Assembly (NCBI GenBank): GCA_944391855.1
Contig: CALXVB010000003.1
Coordinates: 1 to 64,000, forward strand
Source of the DNA: an uncultured Clostridia bacterium
GTDB taxonomy: Bacteria; Bacillota; Clostridia; TANB77; CAG-508
DNA: 64,000 bases
Direction of reading: 5' to 3'
The notes under the pieces were generated by a model. That model made no database searches and was not told the DNA's origin. It worked only from the letters and a program-made list of their open reading frames with translations. This document shows, piece after piece, positions 2,746 through 23,079 of the stretch. Made by a program: the position numbers and the translations under genes. The first letter of the stretch is position 1; every line of letters begins with the position of its first letter.

Positions 2746-2807
2746 GAAAATTAATTTAATATGTATATTTTGTTATAAATCTAATAAAATAAGAAGGAGA
2801 AAATATA

Positions 2808-4404: not shown

Positions 4405-4415
4405 CTTCATATTTT

Positions 4416-5006: not shown

Positions 5007-5019
5007 ATATTTCCCTCCT

Positions 5020-5940
5020 TTATGTATTATTTTTATTTATATTATCTATAATAATATTTTCATTTTCTTCATCTTTATGCCCTGGGTTTGTTAATAAAGT
5101 ATCTTTTAATGAGTTTTTTAACTTATCACAACATGGCTTAAAAGATACAAATGTAATACCTCCTCCTATTACACCACCAACAACTGGGATAGCCTTCTTA
5201 AAAAATCCAGCAAATACTTCTTTAGTCATTTTTACACCAAACCATTTAGCAATGCTCTTTACTATTGGATACACTGTTCCTTTAGTAAGTGCCGTGTTTA
5301 TTAATTTCTTTTCTACACCTACAGCAAGTGCTTTTGCTATAGACTTTATTGCATTATTTGCACCTGCTACCCCATACATAACACCTAAACATATAGTTAA
5401 TATATTTAATGTTTCTGTATCAAATGCTTGACCTTTTTCATATATGTTTATTTCTGGAAATCCATATAAATACATTAGTTTTTGAGCTGCTCTTAGCATA
5501 TACCCATAATATTGTATAATATCTGCGGGAATAGTTGCTGCCATTGCCGCGCCTCCAGGAGTACCTAGTGCTGCAGATATTCCTGTTACGCAATTTCTTT
5601 CAAAAGCAATTACTTCATCAGCTATTTTATTAATTTCATTAAGAGGTATACCTGCATTTATTGGTGTAGTCTCTATTGCTCTTTCTACTGTTTCTCTTGA
5701 ATATTTTTTACTAAATTCTTTTTCTAGAAAATTTCTTCTATTAATTCCTATTCCCGGAATCCTTAATCCCAGAATAATTATATCTTGTATATCTATTTTT
5801 CCATCTCCGTTTGCATCCATTGCAGTTGTAATTTTATCTTTTGATTTAGCAGTAATTTCTTTTGCTTTGTTCGAAATATTTGTAGTAGTTTTCTTAGCAC
5901 TATTTACAATATTTTCGACTTTTTCTTTCTTTATTTTCAT
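5020..5940 (-). CDS. EcsC-like protein with N-terminal EF-hand/dockerin-like DxNxDGxID motif
   Basis: 306 aa. [44 protein letters not shown] resembles the EcsC family core as I remember it. [13 protein letters not shown] is a Ca-binding-type loop. Confidence 0.45.
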
Positions 5941-6077
5941 ATATTGTTCCTCCTTCTTATTTTCTTTATATAGTATTTGTAAATTTCGCGAATATTTTTT
6001 TACCTCAAAAAAATTTTAACCTAATTACTAGTATAAATCAATGATTCGGCTAAAATTCATTTCAATATTATATAAAA

Positions 6078-6110
6078 ACTCTTCAACAACCAATCGGTTT
6101 GTTGAAGAGT
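6078..6110 (-). terminator. Rho-independent terminator of the 69-aa gene
   Basis: ACTCTTCAACAA / TTGTTGAAGAGT 12-bp stem (6078-6089 / 6099-6110). A T-run follows on the minus strand (complement of 6071-6077). Confidence 0.7.
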
Positions 6111-6120
6111 CTTTCTTAGC

Positions 6121-6330
6121 TCACTCGTCAGTATCATCCTTTTGTTTTCTTGCACGAAACTTGAAGCTCGCCAGAAACATAGTTGCTGCACCAAGAAGGT
6201 AGCTAATTAGCCGATCCAGTGGAAATGCCTTGATGGCGTTCCAAATTTCACTGCCGTAGGTAATAGCCAATACGATAATGAATACCAGAACCGACAATAG
6301 AATAAACTTTACCCAACTTGTGACTCTCAT
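6121..6330 (-). CDS. Small two-TM membrane protein, compositionally foreign
   Basis: 69 aa, MRVTSWVKFILLSVLVFIIVLAITYG...LLGAATMFLASFKFRARKQKDDTDE. SD AGGAGGA upstream and its own terminator. Hand-counted G+C is 48% (line 6181) and 40% (line 6241) versus 25% in the flanking line 6001. Confidence 0.55.
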   Translation of the reverse strand: MRVTSWVKFILLSVLVFIIVLAITYGSEIWNAIKAFPLDRLISYLLGAATMFLASFKFRARKQKDDTDE

Positions 6331-6458
6331 AATGTATCCTCCTATTGCTTTATTGGGTTTTAGGAACTATTTCCTATATACATTATTATACATTAAATTT
6401 ACACATATTGCAAATTTATGTAAATATGGTTCTTAATAATAAATATCTTCTATATATT

Positions 6459-7964
6459 TTATAGATCTTTTACACTTGGTCCATATATTAGTTTTCCTTT
6501 ATAATCATACCTAGAACCATGACATGGGCAATCCCAAGTTTTATCTAAATTATTCCACGTTAATTCACAGCCTAAATGCTTACAAACTGGATTTATTTTA
6601 TATATTTCACCTTTTTTATTTTTATATACCCCAACTTTCTTACCATCAATTTCAACTATTTTGCCTTCTCCATTTTGTATTTGGTTTATTTCTTCTTTTG
6701 GTATTTCTAATTTTTTTATGACTAATGAGTCTATACTAGTCTTTACTATATTTCCCACTTCTTTTATATTCTTTATTGGTTCTACTCTTGTGGAAGTAAA
6801 TATTTCTTCATATTTGTTTTCAAATCCCATTATCTTATCAGTAATTATATCTGCAGCTATTTTTGAAGTTGTAATTCCCCATTTATTAAATCCTGTAGCC
6901 ACATAACATTTGTCCCATACTTTAGAAAATTCTCCTATATATGGTATTTTATCAAGTGTTATACAATCTTCTGTGTTCCAGTGATATTTTATTTCTCCTT
7001 TTGGGTATATTTCTTTTGCTATTTTCTCTAATTTTGTATATGAATTACTTAAATCCTTTTCTTCTCCTGTTTTATGGTCTGAGCCAACAACAATTAGTAT
7101 ATAGCCATCCTTATCCTTTGCCATTCTTAATGATATAGTAGGTTTTTCTGAATTTATATACATTCCATTAAAAATTTTTTCTTTTGTTTTCATTCCTATT
7201 CCATAACTTGTCCCTTGATACATTTTTAAGAAATAAAATCCTGGTATGTTTACTATTGGATATTTAGTTGCTAATACTAAGTATTTAGTTTTTATTTCAC
7301 AACCATTTTGTGTTTTAACTAAATAGCCGTTTTCTTCGTCTATTATGTCTATAGCTTTTGTATTTTCATATATTTGTAGTCTACTTCCACTACAAATTTT
7401 TGCCAATGCATTTGCATATTTATATGGGTTAAATTGTGCTTGGTTTTCAAATTTTACACCAGCTACTACTTTTACTAAGCTACTTACTTCAATATCTTTT
7501 GCTTCTAAATATTCGGCTTTCCCTCCAAAACTATTTACAACTTCTGCTTCATCTTTTAATTTTTGCATATCTGCTATTGTTCCTGTAAATACATAGCTTG
7601 GTTGATATTCAAAATCACAGTCAATATTTTCTTTTTTTATGATATTAGCTATTCCTTCTATTGCCTCTTCATTTGCTTTATAGTATTCTTTTGCAAAATC
7701 TATCCCTTTTGAATCGGCCAAATATTTATATATCAATCCATGCTCGCTTGTTATTTTAGCAGTACTATTACCACTTGCTTTTCTACATATTCTATCTTTT
7801 TCTATTAAAATAGTTTTTATATTATATTTTCTTAAATTATATGCAAGGTTAAGTCCAGTTAAACCTCCACCTATTATACAAATATCTGTATCTACATTTT
7901 CTTTTAAAGCTTCAAATTTATTAATCTCCTTTTCATTTAAACTATTAATCCAATATGACTTCAT
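6459..7964 (-). CDS. FAD-dependent oxidoreductase with C-terminal Rieske [2Fe-2S] domain (YhfW-like)
   Basis: Dinucleotide-binding motif ICIIGGGLTGLNLA at the N-terminus. Rieske motif CKHLGC...CPCHGS at the C-terminus. Confidence 0.85.
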   Translation of the reverse strand: MKSYWINSLNEKEINKFEALKENVDTDICIIGGGLTGLNLAYNLRKYNIKTILIEKDRICRKASGNSTAKITSEHGLIYKYLADSKGIDFAKEYYKANEEAIEGIANIIKKENIDCDFEYQPSYVFTGTIADMQKLKDEAEVVNSFGGKAEYLEAKDIEVSSLVKVVAGVKFENQAQFNPYKYANALAKICSGSRLQIYENTKAIDIIDEENGYLVKTQNGCEIKTKYLVLATKYPIVNIPGFYFLKMYQGTSYGIGMKTKEKIFNGMYINSEKPTISLRMAKDKDGYILIVVGSDHKTGEEKDLSNSYTKLEKIAKEIYPKGEIKYHWNTEDCITLDKIPYIGEFSKVWDKCYVATGFNKWGITTSKIAADIITDKIMGFENKYEEIFTSTRVEPIKNIKEVGNIVKTSIDSLVIKKLEIPKEEINQIQNGEGKIVEIDGKKVGVYKNKKGEIYKINPVCKHLGCELTWNNLDKTWDCPCHGSRYDYKGKLIYGPSVKDL

Positions 7965-8103
7965 ACAAAACCACTCCTAAACAAATAAAAAAACTAATTA
8001 TATTATTTCCTATAATTAGTTTTTTAATCATATTTCTTACTAAATCATGTTTATAATTAATTGAATATTTTTAAATATCTTTCATTTATTAATTTTTGAT
8101 AAT

Positions 8104-9393
8104 CTACTTATTTCCAATGTATTTGATTACGTCTCCATACACATAAAAGCTTCCTATAACAAAATTTACTGTGTTTTGTCTATTTTCTCTTTTTATCTCT
8201 TTAATTGCTTCTTCTAAGGATTTTATTTTTATTTTTTGATTTTCTCTTTTATATTTTATAGCTATTTTATATAGTTCTTCTGCAGAAGCATATCTTTCTT
8301 TATCATTTCCACTTGTTAATATGAATGATGCCTTCTCATCACTAAATAACAATTCTAGCATGGTTTCATAGTCTTTTCTTTTTAATATAGATATTATATA
8401 TGTTCTATTTAAATCTTTATAATACATATTAACAGAGTTTAGTAGATTTTTTATCGCTGGTTCGTTATGCCCTCCATCATATATAATTAATGGATTTTTA
8501 CATATTTCTTCCATCCTTCCTCTATGAATAACTGTCGAAAGGCCTTTTCTTATGCTCTCTTCTCTTATCTTATATCCTAAGTTATTTAATATTTCCATTG
8601 TTTTTATACATATTGATGCATTATTTATTTGTACTAGCCCTTTTAGATTTACTTTTATATTTTTTAAATTATCATAGTCAAAATATTGATATTCAGTATC
8701 ATAACTATAATTAGTTATATCTGTTTTCTTTATAAGGTACAACTTATTATTTTTTTGCATACAAATATCTTTAAATATTTTATCTATTTCATCATTATTT
8801 TCAAATACAACTGTATTTGAATTTTGCTTTATTATTCCTGCTTTTTGTATTGCTATTTCTTCTAAACTGTTCCCTAAAATGTGCATGTGGTCATATCCTA
8901 TTGACGTAATAATAGATACCAGTGGTTTTGTTATTACATTTGTACAATCGTATATTCCACCTAGCCCAGTTTCTAAAACCACAAAATCCACATTGTTTCT
9001 ATAAAAATAGAGCAGAGCTATTATTGTTTCAAGTTCAAATAAAGTTACTTGTATGTTACTTATTTTATTATATTCTTCTATTTTAGGCTTTAATTCTTCT
9101 ATTAATTCTATCAATTCCTTGTTTGATATATTAATATTATTAATGCTTATTCGTTCATTGTATTCTATTAAATGTGGAGATAAAAACTTTCCCACTTTAT
9201 ACCCTTGATTTATTAAAATATTAGTCACCATTTCTGTGCAACTACCTTTTCCATTTGTTCCTGCAATATGGATAAATTTCATGTTTTTTTCAAAGTTATC
9301 ATATTTATTTATAAAATATTTCATTGCATCTAGTGATGGATTTTTTGTTCCTTTAAAAAAATTATTTAAAAATTCTTCTACATTTTTTATCAT
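8104..9393 (-). CDS. folC: Folylpolyglutamate synthase / dihydrofolate synthase
   Basis: 429 aa. Mur-ligase P-loop HIAGTNGKGS, and overall FolC length and layout. Confidence 0.85.
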   Translation of the reverse strand: MIKNVEEFLNNFFKGTKNPSLDAMKYFINKYDNFEKNMKFIHIAGTNGKGSCTEMVTNILINQGYKVGKFLSPHLIEYNERISINNINISNKELIELIEELKPKIEEYNKISNIQVTLFELETIIALLYFYRNNVDFVVLETGLGGIYDCTNVITKPLVSIITSIGYDHMHILGNSLEEIAIQKAGIIKQNSNTVVFENNDEIDKIFKDICMQKNNKLYLIKKTDITNYSYDTEYQYFDYDNLKNIKVNLKGLVQINNASICIKTMEILNNLGYKIREESIRKGLSTVIHRGRMEEICKNPLIIYDGGHNEPAIKNLLNSVNMYYKDLNRTYIISILKRKDYETMLELLFSDEKASFILTSGNDKERYASAEELYKIAIKYKRENQKIKIKSLEEAIKEIKRENRQNTVNFVIGSFYVYGDVIKYIGNK

Positions 9394-9441
9394 ATTTATA
9401 TCCCCTATTTTTTAATCATTTACTTCTTCATTTATATCTTT

Positions 9442-10581
9442 TTATATTTTCTTTTTTAAAGTAGCTTCTATTTCAAAATTTCTAAAATTTCTTTGTATTT
9501 TTAGAGTTACCTTATTTCCTGGTTTTTTTGTATAAATATAGCACCTTAAATCACACATTCTTTCTAAAGGCTTTCCATCTATTGAAAGTATAATGTCTCC
9601 TTGCCTTAAACCAGCCGCTTCTGCCGCTGAATTTTTATTTACACTTTCAATATATATTCCTTCATTAAATCTTAAATTATCATCAATATATCCTAGTACG
9701 TTTTTGTCAAATGCAAATACCCCTAAACTTGCTTCTTCAAATCTACCACTGTTTTTAAAACCCTCTATTACTGCCTTTACTGAATTAATTGGTATTGCAA
9801 AACTTATTCCTTCTGCTGAAGTTATTTTTACCCCATTTATTCCTATTACTTCTCCATTAATATTAATAAGTGGCCCTCCACTATTTCCAGGATTTATTGT
9901 CGCATCTGTTTGAATTAAGTCTTCCATATATGTTTCTTTTTCATCTTCTTCAAACTTAATTGTTCTATTAACTGCACTTATTATTCCAGAAGTTACGCTT
10001 CTTTGAAATTCATATCCTATTGGATTTCCTATAGCATAAACTGTTTCTCCTACTTCTACTTTATCTGAATCTCCTAATGTTGCAGTAGTAAGACCTTTTT
10101 GATTTATTTTTACTATTGACATATCTATATCTGTATTAGACCACACAACCTGTCCGTTATACGTTTTCCCGTCTACTAAAGTCACATAGCATTTACTATA
10201 CTTTTCTCCACTTACATGAGCATTTGTTAAAATATATCCATTTTCTGATACTATTACCCCTGTGCCCAAACCTAAATTTGTTATATTGTCCCACGAAAAT
10301 ATACTACTTCCGGTATTTTCTATTTTAGAAATTCCAACTACAGAATTACTTAAATTAGAAAGCATATCTGTAACTGTCTCATTTTTTTCTTGAGCCTCTT
10401 CTATTGTTTGTGAGGTTTTTTCTATTAGTACATTTTCTTCTGCTAGTTTCTCCTCATTTACTTGTGTAGTTTGATAAATTATGTAAGATAAAATTAGTAT
10501 TAAAAAAACTAAAAGAAATATTAATATTTTTATTAAATTTTCTTTTAGGTTTTTTTTCTTATCTCTTTTTATATAATCCAT
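9442..10581 (-). CDS. htrA: HtrA/DegP-family serine protease with N-terminal membrane anchor and PDZ domain
   Basis: TNAHV (His), GNSGGPLIN (Ser) and a C-terminal PDZ-like segment (GLRQGDIILSIDGKPL). Confidence 0.9.
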   Translation of the reverse strand: MDYIKRDKKKNLKENLIKILIFLLVFLILILSYIIYQTTQVNEEKLAEENVLIEKTSQTIEEAQEKNETVTDMLSNLSNSVVGISKIENTGSSIFSWDNITNLGLGTGVIVSENGYILTNAHVSGEKYSKCYVTLVDGKTYNGQVVWSNTDIDMSIVKINQKGLTTATLGDSDKVEVGETVYAIGNPIGYEFQRSVTSGIISAVNRTIKFEEDEKETYMEDLIQTDATINPGNSGGPLININGEVIGINGVKITSAEGISFAIPINSVKAVIEGFKNSGRFEEASLGVFAFDKNVLGYIDDNLRFNEGIYIESVNKNSAAEAAGLRQGDIILSIDGKPLERMCDLRCYIYTKKPGNKVTLKIQRNFRNFEIEATLKKKI

Positions 10582-10695: not shown

Positions 10696-12402
10696 TTATT
10701 TTGTCTTTTCAAGTTTTTTTAATTCTACAAATCTTTTTACCTTTTGTGTTGTAGTTTTTTCTAGTGGCTTATCTGTTAGAATAATTTCTTTTATATGTTT
10801 AAAAGTAGGTAATTCTTTATTTATATTTTTTATATCTTCCCATACTAATTTCTCATATTCTTTTTCTGTTTTTTCTCCAAAGTGATCCTTTATATTGTCC
10901 TTGTTATACACAATTTTTGCACAAAGTACAGTGTCTGTTTTACTCTTGTTACGTGCATATACCATGTTTTCTTCTACATATGGAAGTTTATTTATTAAAA
11001 ATTCTAATTCTTGTGGATAAATGTTTTTACCGTTTTTTAATACAATAATATCACTCTTTCTTCCAGTTATATATATAAATCCATCATTATCTATATATCC
11101 ATAGTCCCCTGTGTGAAGCCAGCCATTATCTAATGTTTTTTTAGTTGCCTCTTCATTCTCATAATATCCTAGCATTATGTTAGGGCCTTTTCCTAGTATT
11201 TCTCCTATTCCATTTTTATCTGGATTATCTATTTTTATTTCTACATTTTTAAGTGGTATTCCTATTGAGCCTGCTCTTTTCTTATCAGAAGATTCTGCTG
11301 TAAGTACAGGTGAACTTTCTGTTAAACCATATCCTTGAATTAGTTCTATTCCTAAATCGTTATACCATTCTATAGTTACTTTATCCATAGGCGCTGCACC
11401 ATAAAGTACAACTCTTAAATATTCATCAAATTGTTTTAATACAGGCTTAAATAATTTCTTTCTTACGTCTATTTTACACTTTAGAAGTCCGTGAGAAAGT
11501 TTAGTCATTTTATCTATTAAACCTTTTTTTCCGCTATCGCTAATTGCTTTTTGAATTTTTTTAGCCATTGTTTCAAGTACTAGTGGAACTGCAACAAATA
11601 CGGATACCTTAAATTCTTTTAAATTATCTGCTATATATCTTAATCCTTCACAAAACGCTATTGTTGCACCACAAAATGTACCATATAAAAATGTTATGCT
11701 ACACTCAAAAGTATGGTGTATTGGCAAGAAAGAAAGTAGTGTATCTGTTTCATATATCATAAAATTATATTGATAATTTGAAACATTTTTACAAATATTT
11801 TCTTGTGAAAGCATTACTGCTTTTGGTTCATTAGTTGTGCCTGAAGTAAATAGCATAATGTACATTTCATTTTCATTAAGTTTAATTTCGTCGTATTTTG
11901 CTTTACCTGCCTTTATTACGTCTTCTCCATCTTTTAGCATATTTTCAAATTTTAATACTCCGTCTTTTTCTATATTATCCATGCATATTTTGTATTTTAT
12001 GTTACAGCCTTGGCTAATGGCTTCATCTACTGCATTTTGATATTTTTCTTCATATACTATTGCGTCTACCCCGCTTCTTTTTAAAAGTTTTTCTATTTCT
12101 TTATCTGTTAATGCCTTATCTAATGGTACTATTATTCTTCCAGCTGTTGTTACTCCTAAATATGTTATACACCATTCATACCTATTATTTCCTATAACAG
12201 CTACTCTTTTGACATCTGAAGAAATTACTTTTTCCGCTACTTTTTTTATGTCTCCTACATATTTACTATATGTTACTTCTTCTACTTTTCCATTTCTTTT
12301 ATACTTAAAAGCAATGTTTTCTCCATAGCCTTCATATTTTTTTACTAATTCTCTGAAGTTCGATATCTCTTCATAATACTTGATTTTATCTTTTTTTCTC
12401 AC
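10696..12402 (-). CDS. Long-chain acyl-CoA synthetase (AMP-forming, FadD-like)
   Basis: 568 aa. AMP-binding core LFTSGTTNEPKAVMLSQEN and TGDYGYIDNDGFIYITGRKSD. GTG start with SD AGGAGGA. Divergent from the NRPS. Confidence 0.85.
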   Translation of the reverse strand: MRKKDKIKYYEEISNFRELVKKYEGYGENIAFKYKRNGKVEEVTYSKYVGDIKKVAEKVISSDVKRVAVIGNNRYEWCITYLGVTTAGRIIVPLDKALTDKEIEKLLKRSGVDAIVYEEKYQNAVDEAISQGCNIKYKICMDNIEKDGVLKFENMLKDGEDVIKAGKAKYDEIKLNENEMYIMLFTSGTTNEPKAVMLSQENICKNVSNYQYNFMIYETDTLLSFLPIHHTFECSITFLYGTFCGATIAFCEGLRYIADNLKEFKVSVFVAVPLVLETMAKKIQKAISDSGKKGLIDKMTKLSHGLLKCKIDVRKKLFKPVLKQFDEYLRVVLYGAAPMDKVTIEWYNDLGIELIQGYGLTESSPVLTAESSDKKRAGSIGIPLKNVEIKIDNPDKNGIGEILGKGPNIMLGYYENEEATKKTLDNGWLHTGDYGYIDNDGFIYITGRKSDIIVLKNGKNIYPQELEFLINKLPYVEENMVYARNKSKTDTVLCAKIVYNKDNIKDHFGEKTEKEYEKLVWEDIKNINKELPTFKHIKEIILTDKPLEKTTTQKVKRFVELKKLEKTK

Positions 12403-12548
12403 TAAATTTCCTCCTAATTATTGACTTATATTATATGTTAGATATTTTATAACAAATTCACAGTTTTTTCAATATAGCTGTCATTTTATATTGCTTTTTG
12501 TAATAAAAAATTATATAATATCTTCAAATTTATAAAATCAATATTAGG

Positions 12549-15500
12549 GTGAAAAATATGTTAGAAAAAAATGTTTACGGACTTACAGGTCCACAGAAAA
12601 ATATTTGGAATACAGAACTATTTTTTAATAATTCCAACGTTAATAATGTATGTGCTTCAGGTATTCTTCATGAAGCATTGGATTTTGATTTACTAAAGCA
12701 GGCTTTAAATATACTTGTTAAAGAAAACGATAGTTTTAGAGTTCGCATACAAGTAAAAGATAATGTTCCTGTTCAATATTTTAGTGATTTTGTTCCCTTT
12801 GATGTAGACATATTAAATGCAAATAACAAGAAAGACTTTGCAAAAATAGAGCAAGAAACAGTTTCTAAAAAATTTAATATTTTGGATTCTGATTTATTCT
12901 TATTTAAATTAGTCAGATTTCCTGATAGTACAGGTGGAATAATTTTAAATGTTCACCATATTATTTCTGACTCTTGGTCTTTAGGACTTGTTATACAAGA
13001 GATTATTAAAATTTACCATGCTTTAAAAGCAAATATTGATTATGTACCTGATACATTTTCATATATAGAATATATCAATTCTGAAGAGAAATATAAATCA
13101 AGTAAAAGATATCTATCTGACAAAGAATTTTGGTCAGACTATTTAAGTTCACTCCCTGAACCTGTTACAATTCCAGGTTTAGTTACTTCCACCTCTTCTT
13201 CTAGAGGAAATAGACTTTCATATACAATAGATAAAAAAACTTGTAATTTAATAAATGAATATTGTAGAAGTAATAATATTTCTAACTATGTTTTCTTTAT
13301 GTCTATTTTTGCTTTATATATTGCAAATATTTCCGACTCATTAGACTTTATAATAGGTACACCTATATTAAATAGAACTAATTTTAAAGAGAAAAATACC
13401 ATTGGTATGTTTGTAGAAACAGTACCTTTTAGATTTTCTTTAGACATTTCTTCTAGTTTCAAGGAACTTTCTTCTAAAACTAGTCTTAATTTAATGTCTT
13501 TATTAAGACATCAAAAATATTCATATACAGATATGTTAGAAGATTTGAGAAAACAAGATAATAATATTCCTAATTTATATAATATAGCCATTTCGTATCA
13601 AATTACTAAAGCTTTTTCTAGTGATATTGGAGATTATGAAACAAATTGGGCTTTTAATAACAACTCTTTAAATGATATGAATATACATATATATGATATT
13701 AACGATACTGGATCTTTACAAATCAATTATGATTATCTAATTGATAAATATGCAGAAAAAGATATTGAATTTTTACATTTAAGAATATTAAATATTATTA
13801 AACAAGTGCTAAATTCATCTAATAATTTAAAATTAAGCGATATTAAAGTTATTACTGATGAAGAATTTGGCCAATTAAGTAAATTTAACAACTACACATT
13901 GAACTATTCAACAGCTACTGTTAATGAATTAATTTCAGAAGCTGCTGATAAATACCCTAATAATATTGCAGTGGTAGATAATAATAGGAGAATAACATAT
14001 AGTCAACTCGAGAATTATTCTAATATTATTGCTAACATTTTAATAAAGAATAATATTAAAAGCAATGAAATAGTAGGTATATATATGCCTGAGAAAAATA
14101 TAGATTTAATTTGTTCTGCCTTAGGCATTTTAAAAACTGGTAGCGCTTTTTTAGGTATATATAATGAATATCCTTTAGATAGAATTATATATATGCTTAA
14201 GGATAGCAATTCAAAATGTCTTATTGTAGATGACCTAAATAATCCAAATGTTAAAGCTATAAAAACTGCTATTCCTAATATTTTATTGATTGAAACTAAT
14301 TCTTTAGATTTTTCTAAAAAGTTAGATTTTAAAATAAATACTAAAATAGATTTAGACTCAAATGCATATATAATATATACGTCAGGATCTACTGGTAAGC
14401 CTAAAGGAGTATCATTATCTCATAAGAACTTAATAAACTTTGTATATAGCTTTAGAGAGCATCTACAAGGTGTTGATATAACTGATAGATTTATTAGTGT
14501 TACTAATATTTGTTTTGATGTTAGTATGTCCGAAATATTTACACCTTTGTTTTTTGGTGCAAGTCTCTATTTGTATAAAGACTTAAATTATAGTACACCA
14601 AAAGAACTTGCTGAATATATTACAAAGAATGAGATTACATTTTCATATTTTCCACCTGCTCTACTCTCTCATGTATGTAATGAACTTAAAAAATTAGATG
14701 GTGTAAAATTGTGTAAAATGTTAGTCGGCGTTGAGCCAATTAAAGCCGCTACACTTTCTGAATTTTTGAAAATAAATCCTAATATGAGAATTGTAAATGG
14801 TTATGGTCCAACAGAGACAACTATATGCTGTACAATGTATGATTTTGGTAATACTCTTCCTGCTGATTCTATAGTACCTATAGGTATGCCATTGTATAAC
14901 AATCATCTTTATGTTTTTAATAAATTTATGAACTACTTGCCTATTAATTATCCTGGTATTTTGTGGGTAGCTGGTGATAACGTAGGAAATGGATATATAG
15001 GACAAGCAAAAAATACCACTGATACATATAAAGTATTTAATGGCACTAATTTCTATAATACTGGAGATTTAGTAAAATGGGATGAAAACGGTGTTTTACA
15101 TTTTATTGGTAGAAAAGATAACCAGATTAAATTTCATGGTTATAGAATCGATTTAGGTGAAATTGAAGCTGCAATAAAGAAATTTGAAAATGTAAGTAAT
15201 TGCTTTGTCTTGTCAAATAAAACAAATGAAGTGGATAGATTGGTAGCTTTTATAACTTCTCATTCTATAATAAATGAATTTGATATTAGAACATTTATAT
15301 CTAATATCTTGCCACATTATATGATTCCAAGCGAATTTATCTTTTTAGATACTTTCCCATTAACTCCTAATGGAAAGATAGATAAAAAAGCTTTATTAGA
15401 GCTTGCTAATGTTAAATTTAACAGTTCTAAAGATAATGTAAAACCTAGCTCTCCACTAGAAAATACTCTTGCTAATATATTTTCTAGCGTACTTGGTATA

Positions 15501-18500
15501 TCACAAATTAGTGTGAACGATAACTTTTTTGAACTTGGTGGTGATTCACTAAATGCAATTAAATTAATTGGTAAAATAGAAGAAGAATTACACATGAAAA
15601 TATTAATAAAAGATATTTTTAGCTTTCCTACAGTTGCATCAATGGCTAAATATATAGATCAATACTCTTCAAAAAGTGAAAAAAGAACTATTACGCCAAC
15701 TACTAAAGAAGAGTTTTACCCTCTAAGTTTTGCACAAAAAAGAATATATTATACAGTAAAATTAAATGAAAATTCTATTGTATATAACACACCATTTGGA
15801 ATTATCTTTGACAAAATGCCTGATACTTTAAAATTAGAGGCTTGCTTTAATACAATAATAGATACTAATCAAGCATTACGTACATACTTTGATATAGAGA
15901 ATGGAGAAGTTGTACAGAAAGTTAAGGATAAGATAGATTTTAAATTAGATGTTGTAGAAACAGAAAATAAGAGTATTAATGAAATTTTTGATGATTTCGT
16001 ACAACCTTTTGATTTAAATACAGCACCACTATTTAGAGCCAAATTTGTAAAATCAGGAAATATATATATTTTGCTTGTAGACATGCATCATATTATTTGT
16101 GATGGTCAATCAGCTAATATATTAGCAGATAAACTTTGTAAATTATATAATGATACTTCTATAGAAAAAAATGATATTGACTATATTGATTTTGTAGTTT
16201 GGGAAAGAAAAAACTCTCAAACAGAAGAGTTTGAAAAATCAAAAGAGTTTTGGGTAAATAATTTTAAAGGAGAATTACCTGTTTTAAATATGCCTTTACA
16301 AAAAACTAGACCTAAGGTTCAGTCTTTTAGAGGAAATAAAATATATGATAAAATAGAAGATACAGCTAAATTATATGAATTATGTAAGAACCTTAATGTT
16401 ACACCATATATGCTATTACTATCTTTATATTATGTATTATTATATAAATACACCGGTCAAGACGAATTTGTTGTAGGTTCTCCTATTACAGGTAGGGATA
16501 ATATTCAAACTTCTAATATTATTGGTATGTTTGTTAATACTTTACCTTTAAAGGCTACAGTTAATAAAAATACAAGTTTCCATAACTTGTTAAGCCAAGT
16601 AATGAATAATTGTATTAGAGCTTTTGAAAATCAGTTATATCCTTTTGATGAGCTTGTAAAAGAATTAGATATTCCAAGAGATTCTAGTACTACTCCTATA
16701 TTTAGCACAATGTTTACATTCCAAAATACAGGTGTTCCAAGTTTAGAATTAAATGGTTTGAATGTAAAATATTATATTCCTGATAATAAGACTGCTAAAT
16801 TTGATTTTTCGTTGGAGATATCTCCAATAGGTAATGATTTAGACTTAAATTTAGAATATTGTATTGATTTATTTGATAAGGAATTTATGCAAGATTTTCT
16901 AAAACATTATATTAATATTTATAACTATATATTAAATAATGATATGGAAGTTTTAATAAAAGATATACCTATATTATCTAAAGAAGAAGAAAATTCCTTG
17001 ATATATGAATATAATGATACATATATTGAATATCCTCGTGATAAAACAATAATACAGTTATTTGAAAAACAGGTAAAAGAAACTCCAAATAAAACTGCTA
17101 TTATATTTAATAATAAATCTATAACATATAAAGAATTAAATAAAAAAGCTAACCAAATTGCTTATTATTTAAGGGAAAATGGTATTAAACCTAATAATGT
17201 AGTTGGTATAATGGTAAATCGTTCTTTCGAATTAATTGCTTGCATGCTGGGAATTTTGAAGTCAGGCGCTGCATATTTGCCAATAGACCCAACATATCCA
17301 CAAGAAAGGATAAATTATATTATTAAAGATAGTAATGTTAATATATTACTTACATTAGATAACTTGATAAATAATATTAACATAGATTCTAATGCTAAAG
17401 TTTTACCTGTAAATTTTGATACTAGTGCAATCTACAATTTACCTGATGATAATTTAGATACTGTAAATAAACCAGAAGATTTAGCATATTTAATATATAC
17501 TTCTGGTTCTACTGGTAATCCAAAAGGAGTTATGCTTACACATAGAAATGTTAATAATTTTATAGAAGCAACCTGTAAAGAAATAGAATTTGAAAATATA
17601 ATAGTTTCTGTTACAACTTTCTGTTTTGATATATTTGTGTTAGAATCATTACTTCCTTTGCAAAAAGGATTAACAATAGTACTTGCAAATGAAGAAGAAC
17701 AAAACATACCTCAAAGACTAAATGAACTATGTAATGCCAATAACGTACAAATGTTACAGACAACTCCTGCTAGAATGTCTTTGCTCTTAAGTGATAAAGA
17801 TTCTTTAGAATATATCAAAAACTTAAAAGTAATAATGCTTGGAGGAGAACCATTCCCTCAAAAATTACTTGAAGAACTTAAAAGATTAACAGAGGCAAGA
17901 ATATATAATATGTATGGTCCAACAGAAACTACAGTATGGTCTTCTATAAAAGAACTTACAAATACCTCTGAAATAACTATAGGAAGGCCAATGGGTAATA
18001 CCCAATTCTATATTTTAGATAATGATAATAATCTCTTATCTGCCGGTATGGAAGGACATTTATTCATTGGTGGAGATGGTGTAGGTAACGGATATTTACA
18101 TAGAGTAGAATTAACTAAAGAAAAATTTATAAATAACCCATATAGAGAGAATGATATAATATATGATACAGGAGATATGGCAAAATGGAATAATGAAAAA
18201 GAAGCTATTTGTTTAGGAAGATCTGATTTCCAAGTAAAACTTCACGGTCTTAGAATTGAACTTTCTGAAATAGAAAATAGAATTGTACAATTTCCGAATA
18301 TATCCAAAGCAGTTGTTTGTGTAAAAAAGGATAATTTAGAAAGAGATTTCTTATGTGCTTATTTCGTATCTAAAAGTAGAATAAGTACACCTGCCTTGAA
18401 GGACTTTTTAAGTAAATTCTTACCTACTTACATGGTACCAAATAAATTTAAACAATTATCTGATTTCAAATACACACCTAACGGAAAGATAGATAAGAAA

Positions 18501-19994
18501 GCTTTGCCAGAAATTAGATTTCAAACAAAGAAAGATAACATAGAATTACCTAAAACAGCAACAGAAAAAAAATTGTCTAAAATATATGAAGAGCTTTTAA
18601 GTATTTCTCCAATAAGCATTAATGATAATTTCTTCGAAATTGGTGGAGATTCAATGCTTGCATTAAAGTTGCAAATTAAGTTATTAAATGATAATATATA
18701 TATCACCTATGCAGATATTTTTAAATATCCTACAATAAGACAATTAGCAAATAAGCTTGATACTAATATAGAAAATAATAGTATTTCTGTAGAAAATTAC
18801 GATTTTTCTAATATTCATTCACTTATAAAAGTTAATAGTATAGAAAATATCAAAAGTATATCAAAATTAGAAAAAAGAGAAACCGGAAATATTATTCTTA
18901 CTGGTGCTACTGGCTTTTTAGGTGCGCATATATTATCGCATATATTAGATAATACAAATCTAAAAGTTTATTGTTTATTACGACCTGATTTAAGTATAGA
19001 TATAAATACTAAATTATTAAAAAGATTACAATATTATTTTGGTAATAAATATGATAAATTAATGAATATAAGGATATTTGCAATATCTTCAGATATTACT
19101 AGTGAAGGACTTGGCTTAAACATTGATACACTTACCCTATTGAATAAAGAAGCTTCTTGTGTTATAAATAGTGCTGCTATTGTAAAACATTATGGAGATT
19201 ATTCAGATTTTGAAAAGATAAATGTAAATGGAGTAAAAAATTTAATAAATTTCTGTATTAATAATAATAAAGAATTAATACAAATTTCTACAACTAGTGT
19301 GTCTGGAAATACCTTGTTTGATTTAGCTATTGATAATAATAACTTTAAGGAAGATATTGAATTTAATGAAACTAATTTCTACATTGGACAATCTTTGGAA
19401 AATGTATATGTGCGTAGTAAGTTTGAAGCAGAAAAAATTATATTTGAAAATATGTTTCATAATAACCTAAGGGCATTAATATTAAGAATAGGAAATATAA
19501 CTAATAGAAGTACTGATGGTAAATTTCAGCCCAACGCTTCTGAAAATGCATTTTTAAATAGATTAAAAGCATTTTTAGAGTTAAAATGTGTTCCAAACTA
19601 TTTAAAAAACATATATATTGAATTTAGCCCAGTAGATAAAGTAGCAGAAGCTATATATAAAGCAATATGTTACTCAAATAAATTTAATGTTTTTCACATA
19701 TATAATCCAAACCATATATATATGGAAGATTTAGTTCAGTTATTACCTGAAAATAAATTGACTTTTGTAGAAGATGAAGTATTTGATAAGAAATTACATA
19801 ACTTTATGAAAAAGGTTAGCGATACTACTTCTGTTTCTTACTTAATAAATGATTTAAATAAAGACCAACATATAAATTATGATAATTATATAAAAATAAA
19901 AAATGACTTTACTACTTACTTTTTAAATAAATCTAACTTTAGATGGAATAAAATTGATAAAGATTATATTGAAAAACTATTAAAAAACTTTTAA
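12549..19994 (+). CDS. Bimodular non-ribosomal peptide synthetase, C-A-T-C-A-T-R (terminal thioester reductase)
   Basis: C1 motif HHIISDSWS (His aa 136, nt 12954). A1 core TSGSTGKPKG at nt 14379-14408. T1 motif GGDS, Ser aa 1000 (nt 15546). C2 motif HHIICDG (nt 16086). A2 core TSGSTGNPKG at nt 17499-17528. T2 motif GGDS, Ser aa 2035 (nt 18651). R domain GATGFLG (nt 18903-18923) plus YVRSK. The true start may be ATG 12558 (MLEKN), 8 nt after AGGGTG. Confidence 0.95.
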   Translation: MKNMLEKNVYGLTGPQKNIWNTELFFNNSNVNNVCASGILHEALDFDLLKQALNILVKENDSFRVRIQVKDNVPVQYFSDFVPFDVDILNANNKKDFAKIEQETVSKKFNILDSDLFLFKLVRFPDSTGGIILNVHHIISDSWSLGLVIQEIIKIYHALKANIDYVPDTFSYIEYINSEEKYKSSKRYLSDKEFWSDYLSSLPEPVTIPGLVTSTSSSRGNRLSYTIDKKTCNLINEYCRSNNISNYVFFMSIFALYIANISDSLDFIIGTPILNRTNFKEKNTIGMFVETVPFRFSLDISSSFKELSSKTSLNLMSLLRHQKYSYTDMLEDLRKQDNNIPNLYNIAISYQITKAFSSDIGDYETNWAFNNNSLNDMNIHIYDINDTGSLQINYDYLIDKYAEKDIEFLHLRILNIIKQVLNSSNNLKLSDIKVITDEEFGQLSKFNNYTLNYSTATVNELISEAADKYPNNIAVVDNNRRITYSQLENYSNIIANILIKNNIKSNEIVGIYMPEKNIDLICSALGILKTGSAFLGIYNEYPLDRIIYMLKDSNSKCLIVDDLNNPNVKAIKTAIPNILLIETNSLDFSKKLDFKINTKIDLDSNAYIIYTSGSTGKPKGVSLSHKNLINFVYSFREHLQGVDITDRFISVTNICFDVSMSEIFTPLFFGASLYLYKDLNYSTPKELAEYITKNEITFSYFPPALLSHVCNELKKLDGVKLCKMLVGVEPIKAATLSEFLKINPNMRIVNGYGPTETTICCTMYDFGNTLPADSIVPIGMPLYNNHLYVFNKFMNYLPINYPGILWVAGDNVGNGYIGQAKNTTDTYKVFNGTNFYNTGDLVKWDENGVLHFIGRKDNQIKFHGYRIDLGEIEAAIKKFENVSNCFVLSNKTNEVDRLVAFITSHSIINEFDIRTFISNILPHYMIPSEFIFLDTFPLTPNGKIDKKALLELANVKFNSSKDNVKPSSPLENTLANIFSSVLGISQISVNDNFFELGGDSLNAIKLIGKIEEELHMKILIKDIFSFPTVASMAKYIDQYSSKSEKRTITPTTKEEFYPLSFAQKRIYYTVKLNENSIVYNTPFGIIFDKMPDTLKLEACFNTIIDTNQALRTYFDIENGEVVQKVKDKIDFKLDVVETENKSINEIFDDFVQPFDLNTAPLFRAKFVKSGNIYILLVDMHHIICDGQSANILADKLCKLYNDTSIEKNDIDYIDFVVWERKNSQTEEFEKSKEFWVNNFKGELPVLNMPLQKTRPKVQSFRGNKIYDKIEDTAKLYELCKNLNVTPYMLLLSLYYVLLYKYTGQDEFVVGSPITGRDNIQTSNIIGMFVNTLPLKATVNKNTSFHNLLSQVMNNCIRAFENQLYPFDELVKELDIPRDSSTTPIFSTMFTFQNTGVPSLELNGLNVKYYIPDNKTAKFDFSLEISPIGNDLDLNLEYCIDLFDKEFMQDFLKHYINIYNYILNNDMEVLIKDIPILSKEEENSLIYEYNDTYIEYPRDKTIIQLFEKQVKETPNKTAIIFNNKSITYKELNKKANQIAYYLRENGIKPNNVVGIMVNRSFELIACMLGILKSGAAYLPIDPTYPQERINYIIKDSNVNILLTLDNLINNINIDSNAKVLPVNFDTSAIYNLPDDNLDTVNKPEDLAYLIYTSGSTGNPKGVMLTHRNVNNFIEATCKEIEFENIIVSVTTFCFDIFVLESLLPLQKGLTIVLANEEEQNIPQRLNELCNANNVQMLQTTPARMSLLLSDKDSLEYIKNLKVIMLGGEPFPQKLLEELKRLTEARIYNMYGPTETTVWSSIKELTNTSEITIGRPMGNTQFYILDNDNNLLSAGMEGHLFIGGDGVGNGYLHRVELTKEKFINNPYRENDIIYDTGDMAKWNNEKEAICLGRSDFQVKLHGLRIELSEIENRIVQFPNISKAVVCVKKDNLERDFLCAYFVSKSRISTPALKDFLSKFLPTYMVPNKFKQLSDFKYTPNGKIDKKALPEIRFQTKKDNIELPKTATEKKLSKIYEELLSISPISINDNFFEIGGDSMLALKLQIKLLNDNIYITYADIFKYPTIRQLANKLDTNIENNSISVENYDFSNIHSLIKVNSIENIKSISKLEKRETGNIILTGATGFLGAHILSHILDNTNLKVYCLLRPDLSIDINTKLLKRLQYYFGNKYDKLMNIRIFAISSDITSEGLGLNIDTLTLLNKEASCVINSAAIVKHYGDYSDFEKINVNGVKNLINFCINNNKELIQISTTSVSGNTLFDLAIDNNNFKEDIEFNETNFYIGQSLENVYVRSKFEAEKIIFENMFHNNLRALILRIGNITNRSTDGKFQPNASENAFLNRLKAFLELKCVPNYLKNIYIEFSPVDKVAEAIYKAICYSNKFNVFHIYNPNHIYMEDLVQLLPENKLTFVEDEVFDKKLHNFMKKVSDTTSVSYLINDLNKDQHINYDNYIKIKNDFTTYFLNKSNFRWNKIDKDYIEKLLKNF

Positions 19995-20019: not shown

Positions 20020-21822
20020 ATGACCACTTTTTTACTATTATATTTTTCGGTAATAATTATTCTTGTAATAATACTTTTAATCAACAGAACCAAAAATAAC
20101 AATCAGCTAGCAAAAATATATACATGTAGCTTAGTTTGTATATTAATATGGGTTACGGCATTACTGTGTCAAATGACTTTTGCTGAAAGGTATAACATTC
20201 CTCCTATATATTTTGATTATGTAGCATATATAGGTATATGTTTTCTGCCTATTAGTGTACTCTTTACTGGTATATGCTTTTCAAAAACGCATGTTACTTT
20301 TAAGAAAAAGCATCTATTGCTATTTATTGTACCAATCATAACTTTGCTATTACTTTGGACAAATGACTACCATCATTTATTATATGAGCACTATTCTATA
20401 TACTTAAACGACTGCGTTTCCGGTCCATATATGATAATGCATAATATATATTCATACGGTTTGCTCTTGATTGGTGTAATGTATTTATTAATATTTTCTT
20501 TTAGGAACTCAGGATTTTTCTCAAAACAATCAGTACTGATTTTTATTGGAATGCTTATTCCTTTAGTAGTTAATGTTTTGGGAACATTCAAAATTCTACC
20601 TATGACAATATATATAACACCTATGACATTTACTCTAACAATGATATTTACTGCACTTGCAATTTTTAAATTTAACTTTTTGTCCGCAACGCCTATTGCA
20701 CTTCAGCGTATTGTCGACACTATGTCTGATGGATATATAGTTCTAAATACTTATAATGTTGTAGTAGATTTTAACTTATCTTTGTTAAAAATGTTAAACA
20801 CAACTGAAGAGAAAGTTAGAAACAAGGATTTTATAGAGCTTCTTAATTTCACTGAATTTACTAAATCTGAAATTAAGAAAGTGGCTCACTATATAGCCTT
20901 ATCAAAAAGCAATAATAAAACTTATACTATGGATAAAGAAAGCAAAGTAACAGAAAAGTATTTTCATATAGAAATAAGTGGATTAATGTCTGAAAATACT
21001 AATATAGGAACTTTAATACTCCTTAAAGATACGACTCAGCACATGATAGATTTACATACCATACAAAATAGTCAAAATTTACTTATGGAAAGAGAGCGTT
21101 TAGCATCACTTGGACAATTAATCGGTGGTATTGCACATAACTTAAAAACACCTATAATGTCAATTTCAGGTGCAGCTGAAGGTTTAACAGATTTAATTCA
21201 TGAATATGATACTTCTATAGGTGACCCGGAAGTTACAAATGATGATCATCATGCCATTGCAAAAGATATGTCAGAATGGGTTAGTAAAATTAAATCATAT
21301 ACAGAATACATGTCAGACGTAATTACAGCTGTTAAAGGGCAGGCAGTTACTCTTTCTGAAAATGATTCTACTTCTTTTGATATTGACGAATTAGTTAAAA
21401 GAGTAAATATATTGATGAGGCATGAATTAAAAAATGCTTTAGTAACATTAAATACAGAGATGAATATAGACAAAAGTACAACTTTGCATGGTGATATAAC
21501 TAGTCTAGTTCAAGTTATTAACAATATGATTTCTAATAGTATTCAAGCATATAATGGAGAGCCTAATAAAGTAATTGATTTAATAATAAAAAAACATGCT
21601 TCAAATGTAGTTATTTCAGTAAGAGATTATGGAAATGGTCTTCCAGAAGAAGTAAAAGAAAAATTATTTAAAGAAATGATAACAACAAAAGGGAAAAATG
21701 GTACTGGTCTTGGATTATTTATGTCTTACTCTACAATAAGAGCACATTTTAATGGAGATATAACATTTGAAACTAAACAAGGTAAAGGTTCTACATTTAA
21801 TATAGTTATACCTATTAAATAA
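20020..21822 (+). CDS. Sensor histidine kinase with N-terminal 7TM domain, PAS-like linker, HisKA and HATPase_c
   Basis: Seven hydrophobic helices in the first ~220 aa. H-box LIGGIAHNLKTPI. G-boxes DYGNGLPEE and GTGLGL. Starts 25 nt after the NRPS stop with SD AGGAGGA and no intervening terminator. Confidence 0.85.
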   Translation: MTTFLLLYFSVIIILVIILLINRTKNNNQLAKIYTCSLVCILIWVTALLCQMTFAERYNIPPIYFDYVAYIGICFLPISVLFTGICFSKTHVTFKKKHLLLFIVPIITLLLLWTNDYHHLLYEHYSIYLNDCVSGPYMIMHNIYSYGLLLIGVMYLLIFSFRNSGFFSKQSVLIFIGMLIPLVVNVLGTFKILPMTIYITPMTFTLTMIFTALAIFKFNFLSATPIALQRIVDTMSDGYIVLNTYNVVVDFNLSLLKMLNTTEEKVRNKDFIELLNFTEFTKSEIKKVAHYIALSKSNNKTYTMDKESKVTEKYFHIEISGLMSENTNIGTLILLKDTTQHMIDLHTIQNSQNLLMERERLASLGQLIGGIAHNLKTPIMSISGAAEGLTDLIHEYDTSIGDPEVTNDDHHAIAKDMSEWVSKIKSYTEYMSDVITAVKGQAVTLSENDSTSFDIDELVKRVNILMRHELKNALVTLNTEMNIDKSTTLHGDITSLVQVINNMISNSIQAYNGEPNKVIDLIIKKHASNVVISVRDYGNGLPEEVKEKLFKEMITTKGKNGTGLGLFMSYSTIRAHFNGDITFETKQGKGSTFNIVIPIK

Positions 21823-21991: not shown

Positions 21992-23047
21992 ATGAGAAAA
22001 AATGAGAATATTGCAAAATCTAATGGATATAAGATTATAGCAGTTGATGATGAAGAAGGAATAGTAGATTCACTTTCTATATTCCTAAAAAGGTCAGGTT
22101 ATCAGTTTACAGGAGTTACCGATCCACTAGAGGCAATAGAAAAAGTAAAAAATGAACACTTTGATTTAATGATTTTGGACTTTATAATGGAACCTATACA
22201 TGGTGATAAGGTTGTAGAAGAAATTCGTAAATTTAATAAAGAATTATACATTTTATTACTTACTGGTCATAAAGATTTAGCCCCACCGCTTGAGACTATT
22301 AGAGAATTAGACATTCAAGGATATTGCGAAAAAAGTGATAAATTTGACCAACTTTTATTACTTATAGAGTCAGGAATTAAATCTATTGAACAAATGAATG
22401 AAATTAAGAGAATAAATGAAGAGCTTTCCGAAACTTATGAAAGATTGGAAAAGGCTTACTTAGATAGTATACAAACACTAAGGTATACAGTTGAAGCAAA
22501 GGATCCATATACAAGAGGTCATTCTGATAGAGTATCTGAGTATTCTGTTTTAATAGGCAAGAAGTTAGGTTTATCAGATGATGATTTAAAAACCTTACGT
22601 GTTGGCGGGTTATTCCATGATATTGGTAAGATTGGAATACCAGACAGTATACTTTTAAAAGAATCAAAATTAACAGATGATGAATATTCAGAAATAAAAA
22701 GTCATCCATCTATTGGTGCACATATTCTTTGTAATGCAGAAGTATTTAAAGATATCATACCAATAGTAAAGCATCACCACGAAAGATATGATGGAAGAGG
22801 ATATCCAGGGCAATTAAAAGGAGAAGATATTCCATATTTTGCAAGAATTGCTGCTGTGGCTGATAGCTTTGATGCGATGACCTCAAAAAGGACTTATAGA
22901 AATTCATTAGATATTTCTATAGTACGTTCTGAAATAGAAAAGAATCTAGGAACTCAATTTGACCCTAAATTAGGCAAAATTTTCATAGATATAATTGATA
23001 ATGAATATGATAAAATAAAGGAAATACAGGAAAAATATCCTTCATAA
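21992..23047 (+). CDS. Response regulator, receiver + HD-GYP domain (RpfG-like c-di-GMP phosphodiesterase)
   Basis: Receiver (IIAVDDEEGI...DLMILDFIMEP). HD-GYP signature HDIGKIGIP...HHERYDGRGYPG. Confidence 0.9.
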   Translation: MRKNENIAKSNGYKIIAVDDEEGIVDSLSIFLKRSGYQFTGVTDPLEAIEKVKNEHFDLMILDFIMEPIHGDKVVEEIRKFNKELYILLLTGHKDLAPPLETIRELDIQGYCEKSDKFDQLLLLIESGIKSIEQMNEIKRINEELSETYERLEKAYLDSIQTLRYTVEAKDPYTRGHSDRVSEYSVLIGKKLGLSDDDLKTLRVGGLFHDIGKIGIPDSILLKESKLTDDEYSEIKSHPSIGAHILCNAEVFKDIIPIVKHHHERYDGRGYPGQLKGEDIPYFARIAAVADSFDAMTSKRTYRNSLDISIVRSEIEKNLGTQFDPKLGKIFIDIIDNEYDKIKEIQEKYPS

Positions 23048-23052
23048 TAATT

Positions 23053-23079
23053 TCCCCGGTTAGCCCGGGGATTTTTTTA
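23053..23079 (+). terminator. Rho-independent terminator
   Basis: CCCCGG ttagc CCGGGG stem-loop (23054-23070) followed by ATTTTTTT. Confidence 0.75.

Follow-up and report, generated by a model that had tools for sequence, protein, structure and literature searches.

We analysed a stretch of 64,000 nucleotides from an uncultured Clostridia bacterium (positions 1 to 64,000 of contig CALXVB010000003.1, assembly GCA_944391855.1; this whole stretch is hereafter the window, and its G+C content is ~26 %). It encodes a bimodular nonribosomal peptide synthetase (NRPS) with the domain order C-A-T-C-A-T-R (C, condensation; A, adenylation; T, carrier; R, reductase), followed by a sensor histidine kinase and by a response regulator with an HD-GYP domain. 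We found that these three genes are kept together in dozens of uncultured gut Clostridia of low G+C content, and that alleles of the NRPS specificity domains are exchanged together with the sensor half of the kinase, whereas the kinase core and the regulator are constant. We propose that the locus is a synthase-receptor cassette, in which a lipophilic product of the NRPS would be the ligand of the co-encoded 7TM/PAS sensor and hydrolysis of cyclic di-GMP (c-di-GMP) the output; we give this reading a probability of about 0.45. Among the matches listed by a scan with generic NRPS core motifs, uncultured Clostridia and Clostridium sp. CAG:273 are the nearest of the named genomes.

The NRPS, kinase and regulator genes form one unit

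The kinase gene starts 25 bp past the stop codon of the NRPS, with AGGAGG placed 10 nt ahead of its start, and the regulator gene follows the kinase after a gap of 169 bp. A scan of the interval 10.4-23.4 kb revealed no terminator-like site between NRPS and kinase. The most GC-rich terminator-like site of this interval, which is also the only one at the end of a gene, closes the NRPS-kinase-regulator unit and is common to the convergent tex gene. The unit is made of these three genes, and not of the NRPS and the acyl-coenzyme A (acyl-CoA) ligase that is encoded divergently upstream. The best NCBIfam model for the regulator describes NosR-family response regulators that are c-di-GMP phosphodiesterases (208 bits, under the cut-off), and the protein is predicted to be such an enzyme. 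The operon lies ~40 kb from the chromosomal origin, head-on to replication. Its G+C content equals that of its surroundings, so a recent foreign acquisition is not indicated.

The association holds when searched from either side. In a forward test, we took 14 distinct relatives of the NRPS (38-80 % identity, two of them trimodular). The gene for a HisKA_7TM kinase follows the NRPS in all 14, and the gene encoding the REC-HD-GYP protein is there too in 12. One of these loci has a wholly different upstream context (MreBCD, MecA) and still has the kinase, whereas in another the insertion of a conjugative element separates the kinase from the regulator. More distant reductase-ending NRPSs of other phyla lack the kinase. 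In a reverse test, a metagenome search with the kinase alignment alone returned 80 loci (49 clusters at 95 %), mostly from the human gut. The R domain of an NRPS ends at most 450 bp upstream of the kinase in 75 of the 76 loci with enough upstream DNA. The regulator lies at most 6.5 kb from the kinase in 66/68 loci, being inverted in eight and separated by an insertion in nine; L095 and L142 have a kinase without a downstream regulator, and L095 keeps the last 53 codons of the R domain.

The slot itself is variable. Trimodular C-A-T-C-A-T-C-A-T-R synthetases (~3500 aa) occupy the same position between HtrA and the kinase in three loci (L170, L171 and L152), so the locus varies in module number besides specificity. 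Three independent metagenome assemblies (L157, L158 and L160; NRPS at ~2450-9892) have the NRPS divided between two open reading frames (ORFs), with the split always at the same point. This suggests that the lineage has a genuine frameshift or stop codon, or else a natural form of the enzyme made of two proteins. An HtrA-type protease (trypsin-like and PDZ domains), found at 9442-10581 (-) in the window, is the commonest product of the directly upstream, divergent gene (in 17/34 related loci). As serine and cysteine proteases are inhibited by peptide aldehydes, a functional tie between HtrA and the NRPS, as target or immunity, is conceivable, and plain synteny is equally possible. In the closest relative (80 % identity; L001/L002, 6202-9764), HtrA and DAO-Rieske are each called as two short fragments, possibly pseudogenes or assembly frameshifts.

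Specificity domains and sensor are exchanged together

The 46 dereplicated NRPSs at this chromosomal position have two or three modules and many combinations of specificity codes (Gly, Val, Thr, Pro, Met-like and several unassigned). Some unmatched codes recur, namely DIYTVGI[IV]LK, DIFQTAGVFK and DMVLQGGACK (e.g., L096, L104, L113; L090, L092, L167), and may stand for unusual building blocks.

Four loci (L087, L113, L127 and L162) come from strains of one related species, with flanks that are 97-100 % identical and kinase core and regulator 99-100 % identical. They differ from each other in sharp-edged blocks of 50-70 % nucleotide identity. Between L087 and L127 there is a single block of 4.8 kb, which runs from mid-C2 via A2-T2-R to kinase residue ~325. 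L162 and L127 differ in two blocks, one covering C1-A1-T1-C2 and the other part of A2, T2, R and kinase residues 1-190. L113 and L127 differ in A1 and, separately, in kinase residues ~130-330, and the 4.4 kb between these two blocks are 95-99 % identical. The breakpoints recur at the border between the sensor and the DHp domain. Two loci with distant backbones, L087 and L094 (regulators 71 % identical), have C1, C2-A2-T2-R and kinase residues 1-300 in common at 85-96 % nucleotide identity, whereas A1 and the kinase core differ.

We then compared pairwise identities across 38 dereplicated loci. A2, T2 and R are mutually correlated (0.84-0.89), as are the kinase core and the regulator (0.93). 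The identity of the transmembrane (TM) sensor correlates with that of R (0.71), A2 (0.66) and C1 (0.59), and less with that of the adjacent kinase core (0.44), which is under 1 kb away. In a partial Mantel test, the correlation between TM and A2 holds when the regulator is controlled for (r=0.65, p ~0.002). Of the 497 pairs with an A2 identity below 0.5, none has a TM identity above 0.57, not even those whose kinase cores are 100 % identical. The lineage to which the window itself belongs (window, L001, L082, L084 and L086) has one set of codes, and its parts have all diverged in parallel, as one specificity group that diverges vertically would be expected to look.

Architecture of the NRPS and predicted product

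Pfam gives two Condensation (3e-175), two AMP-binding (1e-159) and two PP-binding domains and a NAD_binding_4 domain (8e-44), in the order C-A-T-C-A-T-R (Table 1), with E-values from 1e-26 to ~1e-175 that are far beyond chance. The translation contains HHIISDSWS in C1 and MHHIICDGQS in C2, YTSGSTGKPKG and YTSGSTGNPKG in the A domains (where core motifs A3 and A10 are present), and GGDS in both T domains. In R we found LTGATGFLGAHIL, STTSVSG and YVRSK, the GxxGxxG nucleotide motif being GATGFLG. Across 14 aligned family members, the His-His-Asp of C1 (H133, H134, D138) and the GATGFLG and Thr-Tyr-Lys of R are invariant. Judged by its domains and motifs, the NRPS is an intact two-module, reductively releasing enzyme with a terminal reductase of the short-chain dehydrogenase/reductase type.

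An earlier note on this DNA, made from its letters and translations (the original prediction), had described a bimodular C-A-T-C-A-T-R NRPS with an N-terminal C domain and a terminal reductase, and the Pfam order and the motifs bear this out. It had named an inactive or non-starter C1, together with an R domain devoid of catalytic residues, as what would speak against it; we found that C1 keeps its His and is nearest to N-terminal C domains, and that R keeps GxxGxxG and Thr-Tyr-Lys. The length given, 2481 aa, is correct for the ORF counted from a GTG (12549..19994, +). An ATG at 12558, preceded by AGGGTGA, is the more likely start, with a product of 2478 aa that is an exact entry of a public protein collection. 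The gap to the ligase, whose GTG start is preceded by AGGAGGA, is then probably 155 bp instead of the 146 bp of the original prediction. In this gap, promoter-like hexamers occur on both strands at a frequency not above that of shuffled sequence, so we make no promoter claims. We considered and rejected a riboswitch or another RNA element ahead of either the NRPS or the regulator; in 12403..12557, Rfam gave no match at E<=1.

Table 1. Features of the NRPS locus in the window.
Feature	Coordinates	Strand	Evidence
Acyl-CoA synthetase, ACSL/FAA1-like, 568 aa	10696..12402	-	Pfam AMP-binding (2e-65) and AMP-binding_C_3
Divergent intergenic region between ligase and NRPS	12403..12557	.	Sequence inspected
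NRPS, 2478 aa, C(putative starter)-A-T-C-A-T-R	12558..19994	+	Pfam, translation, exact public sequence
C1, condensation domain in starter position, HHIISDS, residues 1-445	12558..13898	+	Pfam, similarity to N-terminal C domains
A1, code DVSYLGGICK (predicted Met-like)	13956..15383	+	MAFFT alignment to GrsA fragment 234-526
T1 carrier, GGDS	15465..15656	+	Pfam PP-binding, residues 973-1036
C2, putative elongation condensation domain, HHIICDG	15708..17000	+	Bit scores against internal C domains
A2, code DILQMGMVWK (predicted Gly)	17061..18518	+	Alignment to GrsA, Gly pattern of the literature
T2 carrier, GGDS	18570..18773	+	Second PP-binding stretch; G-G-D-S invariant in the family alignment
R, predicted NAD(P)H-dependent thioester reductase	18897..19991	+	NAD_binding_4 (8e-44); matches to PDB 6VTJ and 4F6C
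Sensor histidine kinase, 600 aa: HisKA_7TM, PAS, DHp (GGIAHNLKTP), HATPase	20020..21822	+	Pfam
Response regulator, REC and HD-GYP, 351 aa (HDIGK, HHERYDGRGYPG)	21992..23047	+	Pfam Response_reg and HD_5
Bidirectional intrinsic terminator	23053..23071	.	7-bp stem with 6 GC pairs, T tracts on both strands

We read the ten specificity positions of each A domain by alignment to a GrsA reference fragment, which was validated as identical to residues 234-526 of 1AMU. In the passages of a survey of 2051 A domains that deal with these codes (PMC12283262), Gly A domains have Leu/Met299, Leu/Met322, Ile/Val330 and Trp331, with DILQLGMIWK as a Gly code, and DVWYLGGICK is reported to activate Met. The A2 code fits the Gly pattern; module 2 is thus predicted to load glycine, and the aldehyde would be a glycinal. 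The A1 code, read from a multiple alignment in which GVE is anchored on the GGE motif, is identical to DVWYLGGICK at 9/10 positions, the mismatch being pocket position 239. A phmmer-based reading of A1, DVSYVPGICK, was discarded as an artefact of gap placement once this anchoring was made.

The two C domains have different relatives. C2 reaches 310-346 bits with numerous internal C domains from unrelated NRPSs and is thus taken to be an ordinary elongation domain. Outside the family, the best match of C1 is the N-terminal C domain of a Paenibacillus peoriae NRPS of at least five modules (212 bits), and the next best is another N-terminal C domain (132 bits), whereas ~330 internal C domains all score at most 114 bits. 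We could not treat the P. peoriae enzyme as a named lipopeptide synthetase, since its A codes fit none that we can name; it serves solely as an example of a domain in starter position. An unvalidated SrfAA starter C sequence matches the C1 domains of the family at 1e-58 to 1e-80, and other C domains at no better than 1e-45. In a sequence search of the PDB with C1, starter and elongation C domains were not told apart. C1 is a candidate starter domain, most similar to N-terminal C domains.

A bimodular NRPS with reductive release and a leading C domain makes an (N-acyl) dipeptide aldehyde or pyrazinone a reasonable product class. The product is likely an (N-acyl) X-Gly aldehyde or, should acylation be absent, a 3-substituted pyrazinone. 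The original prediction had named the same class, and the type of enzyme and the intact C1 and R agree with it; what fell away is the ligase as the dedicated partner of lipo-initiation.

The acyl-CoA ligase is an occasional neighbour

The ligase gene is divergent from the NRPS, on the opposite strand, as the original prediction had it. In NCBIfam the protein is a generic long-chain-fatty-acid-CoA ligase, under all curated cut-offs. It is encoded beside the NRPS in 7/34 dereplicated orthologous loci (those with enough upstream DNA), i.e., in the window and six others. It is missing from the syntenic locus of an NRPS that is 80 % identical (P0002), where the order is DAO-Rieske, FolC, HtrA, NRPS, kinase, regulator and Tex. 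In relatives of 65-69 % identity, it is adjacent, separated by a 3.3-kb insertion, or missing. Where it is present, its identity is 52-86 %, and its divergence tracks that of the housekeeping neighbours and not that of the NRPS. The distribution and the uncoupled divergence speak against the role of lipo-initiation partner that had been assigned to the ligase; it looks like an occasional neighbour with a weak link to the NRPS, rather than a dedicated or conserved partner. In a 68 %-identical relative (L084/L085, 4573-7776), genes encoding a BNR-repeat protein, a small RelA/SpoT-like protein (toxSAS) and a SocA/Panacea antitoxin lie between ligase and NRPS.

A proposed synthase-receptor cassette and its alternatives

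In the proposed cassette, the starter C domain would acylate Met-S-T1 from acyl-CoA or from acyl-acyl carrier protein, and the ligase may supply the acyl-CoA for C1 where it is present. C2 would couple the acylated residue to Gly-S-T2, and R would free N-acyl-Met(-like)-glycinal; without acylation, the free dipeptide aldehyde would cyclise to a 3-substituted pyrazinone. The lipophilic product, or a derivative of it, would be the ligand of the cognate 7TM/PAS sensor, upon which the kinase would phosphorylate the regulator and the HD-GYP domain would hydrolyse c-di-GMP. We infer both the step from product to sensor and that from sensor to c-di-GMP. Such a cassette would be strain-specific like an agr or com group, rather than solely a pathway for a protease inhibitor. 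The sensor is swapped along with the synthetase between strains, which suggests that the product is a bacterial signal. More tentatively, the aldehydes might be primarily cell-cell signals: each NRPS allele would make a distinct molecule that is read by the downstream sensor allele, with c-di-GMP hydrolysis as output, and strains would form specificity groups through cassette exchange, making this a non-ribosomal counterpart of the agr and com pherotypes. A role as an outward protease inhibitor could coexist with signalling.

Several observations weigh against the cassette. The regulator has no DNA-binding domain, and Rfam gave no c-di-GMP riboswitch ahead of the NRPS, so no autoinduction loop is visible. 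One locus, L136 (1-2859), has the kinase and the regulator and no NRPS within 1 kb upstream, being the sole such exception. HtrA and Tex flank many loci, and part of the adjacency is thus inherited synteny. When R is also controlled for, the partial correlation between TM and A2 drops to r=0.13 (p=0.09); as the sensor half is contiguous with A2-T2-R, much of the global signal is accounted for by joint transfer in recombination tracts (hitch-hiking). The non-contiguous swap is a single case (L113 vs L127), and the allelic polymorphism is seen in a related species and not in the window's own lineage. The chemistry of A1 is less certain because of the mismatch at position 239, which is why we call its residue Met-like, and acylation by C1 is putative. 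Finally, no phosphopantetheinyl transferase (PPTase) or dedicated exporter was found among the ORFs of at least ~105 aa in the 64 kb that were scanned against Pfam; the ABC protein encoded at 26227-27807 belongs to the ABC-F type (ABC_tran_Xtn). The original prediction had already seen neither of these, and had added MbtH to the list; the scan found no MbtH either, but MbtH-like proteins have ~70 aa and lie below its reach.

The kinase and regulator are almost never missing, and the kinase sensor is swapped along with NRPS domains, which is hard to reconcile with the view that ligase and NRPS form a self-contained lipo-initiation pathway, whose N-acyl dipeptide aldehyde acts outward on proteases of the host or of competitors, with the two-component system as a mere neighbour. 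This view can draw on the putative starter type and intact active site of C1 and on the divergent ligase of the window and six other dereplicated loci; the ligase is nevertheless missing in 27/34 loci, the closest relative included. A glycinal at P1 is also no obvious warhead for proteases of the cathepsin type, the targets described. In its favour, gut dipeptide aldehydes, some of them N-acylated, are reported to inhibit host proteases (Guo 2017, as related in passages of PMC8210680). We regard the self-contained pathway as somewhat unlikely. A different departure from the cassette concerns C1, which may not acylate at all: a free X-Gly aldehyde would then cyclise and oxidise to a 3-substituted pyrazin-2(1H)-one, which the kinase might sense or not. 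C1 has HHxxxDS where the canonical motif is HHxxxDG, and most loci have no acyl-activating enzyme, yet starter C domains can use acyl-CoA made elsewhere in the genome, as in surfactin, and acyl-activating enzymes need not cluster with them. The His-His-Asp kept by C1 in all 14 aligned members, and its likeness to the N-terminal C domains of multimodular NRPSs, argue that C1 is used. For many gut dipeptide aldehydes, the compound isolated was the pyrazinone that had formed by spontaneous cyclisation, as passages of PMC8210680 and PMC12327764 relate; with these points on either side, a non-acylating C1 seems to us unlikely.

The co-variation could also arise without any ligand. The kinase and regulator would then sense an unrelated cue, the sensor would vary under pressure from phages or host on its exposed loops or because it lies in a recombination hot spot, and the NRPS would co-vary by hitch-hiking. 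The contiguity of the sensor half with A2-T2-R, the loss of the partial correlation once R is controlled for, the deep synteny with HtrA and Tex, and the head-on position of the operon near oriC, a placement linked to faster evolution, are all as expected here. Yet the correlation of the TM region is higher for C1, at a distance of 7 kb, than for the kinase core at less than 1 kb; the breakpoints recur at one border; L113 and L127 differ by swaps of A1 and of the sensor, in two blocks parted by near-identical DNA; and NRPS and kinase stay together despite inversions and insertions. We thus consider hitch-hiking with an unrelated sensor quite unlikely, and favour the synthase-receptor cassette.

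If the cassette is real, it would give a class of ligands to the uncharacterised HisKA_7TM sensor domain and would amount to NRPS-based strain discrimination in the gut. Gut peptide aldehydes are discussed mainly as inhibitors of host proteases, and their native role is unsettled. The wiring of the NRPS to a kinase and a c-di-GMP phosphodiesterase, and the joint exchange of specificity and sensor, point to a role in bacterial signalling. The natural allele sets (L087, L113, L127 and L162) allow direct tests of ligand-receptor specificity.

Other features of the window

The window includes the chromosomal origin region (45086-63692). The minus strand carries dnaA (58243-59583), dnaN, recF, gyrB (52820-54733) and gyrA (45086-47524), the plus strand carries rnpA, yidC, jag and mnmE, and the GC skew flips at ~60 kb. 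Between gyrA and gyrB, the interval 47716-52399 has just 15-20 % G+C. It codes for a TraG/VirB4-like ATPase (49801-51654) and a ParA/CbiA-like protein (48460-49782), and has two more ORFs that match nothing in Pfam. The usual gyrB-gyrA pair seems to be split here by an inserted mobile element. Another integrated element, at a tRNA site, may extend over 38398-44771, where two tRNA genes (38398-38581, -) are followed by genes for a coupling protein of the TrwB type (39505-41085), a replication protein with DnaD/DnaB_2 (42787-43755) and an ATPase resembling DnaC/IstB (43776-44771). The region 496-4260 is phage- and defence-like, with a phage replisome organiser (496-1299), a helix-turn-helix regulator (1996-2745), and a Schlafen AlbA_2 protein (2808-3443) whose gene overlaps that of a HATPase_c_4 protein (3388-4260).

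Comparison with known systems

The best NCBIfam model for the NRPS is that of AusA (NF047350), the aureusimine synthetase of Staphylococcus aureus, which is A-T-C-A-T-R. The core of the NRPS aligns with this model, and its R domain matches that of AusA (4F6C, 1e-36) with the same catalytic residues. It differs in its score, 1519 bits against an equivalog cut-off of 2500, in its extra N-terminal C domain and in its A codes, and no AusB-like PPTase was found adjacent to it in the window. The best solved match to R is the PCP-R didomain structure 6VTJ/6VTZ (8e-45 for 6VTJ, full length, with ~35-40 % identity), which probably comes from an archaeal Methanobrevibacter NRPS. C1 resembles the starter C domains of the SrfAA type in its N-terminal position and its intact HHxxxD, and differs by having HHIISDS instead of HHxxxDG.

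Close parallels are the family of gut-Clostridia dipeptide-aldehyde NRPSs, reportedly that of Guo et al. 2017 (Cell 168:517), and, from Ruminococcus bromii, the rup pathway for ruminopeptin, said to be that of Schneider & Balskus 2018. The locus shares with them an NRPS with reductive release and a leading C domain, and an origin in gut Clostridia, the related contigs coming largely from human gut metagenomes. The C-A-T-C-A-T-R layout agrees with that described for the family in the original prediction, and by this description the NRPS is likely an additional synthetase of the gut dipeptide-aldehyde type. According to passages of PMC8210680 and PMC12327764, the aldehydes of these pathways can cyclise to pyrazinones and some are N-acylated. 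What differs here is that the C-terminal residue is predicted to be glycine, that the NRPS is constantly coupled to a 7TM kinase and HD-GYP regulator, and that alleles are swapped. The literature searched, which excluded both primary papers on the family, does not describe a coupling of this type of NRPS to a histidine kinase and HD-GYP protein, a glycinal terminus, or allele exchange.

The Rpf/DSF (diffusible signal factor) system of Xanthomonas comprises the crotonase-type synthase RpfF, the acyl-CoA ligase RpfB, the hybrid sensor kinase RpfC and the REC-HD-GYP regulator RpfG. The likeness to our locus is one of logic and not of family: a synthase of a small molecule, and sometimes an acyl-CoA ligase, are encoded beside a membrane kinase and a REC-HD-GYP regulator, and the sequence relationship is confined to the HD-GYP and REC domains. 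The synthase is here an NRPS and not a crotonase (Pfam found no crotonase gene beside the kinase), the kinase has no REC or HPt domain in Pfam, and the taxon is Gram-positive. In the agr system of Staphylococcus and the comCDE system of Streptococcus, the signal genes and the sensor half show hypervariability and allelic exchange within one species, whereas the kinase core and the regulator are conserved. Our locus differs from them in its proposed non-ribosomal signal and in an output that is an HD-GYP enzyme rather than a DNA-binding domain. By analogy of logic, it nonetheless has the same pattern within a species (L087, L113, L127 and L162), that of a variable synthase and sensor half joined to a constant kinase core and regulator.

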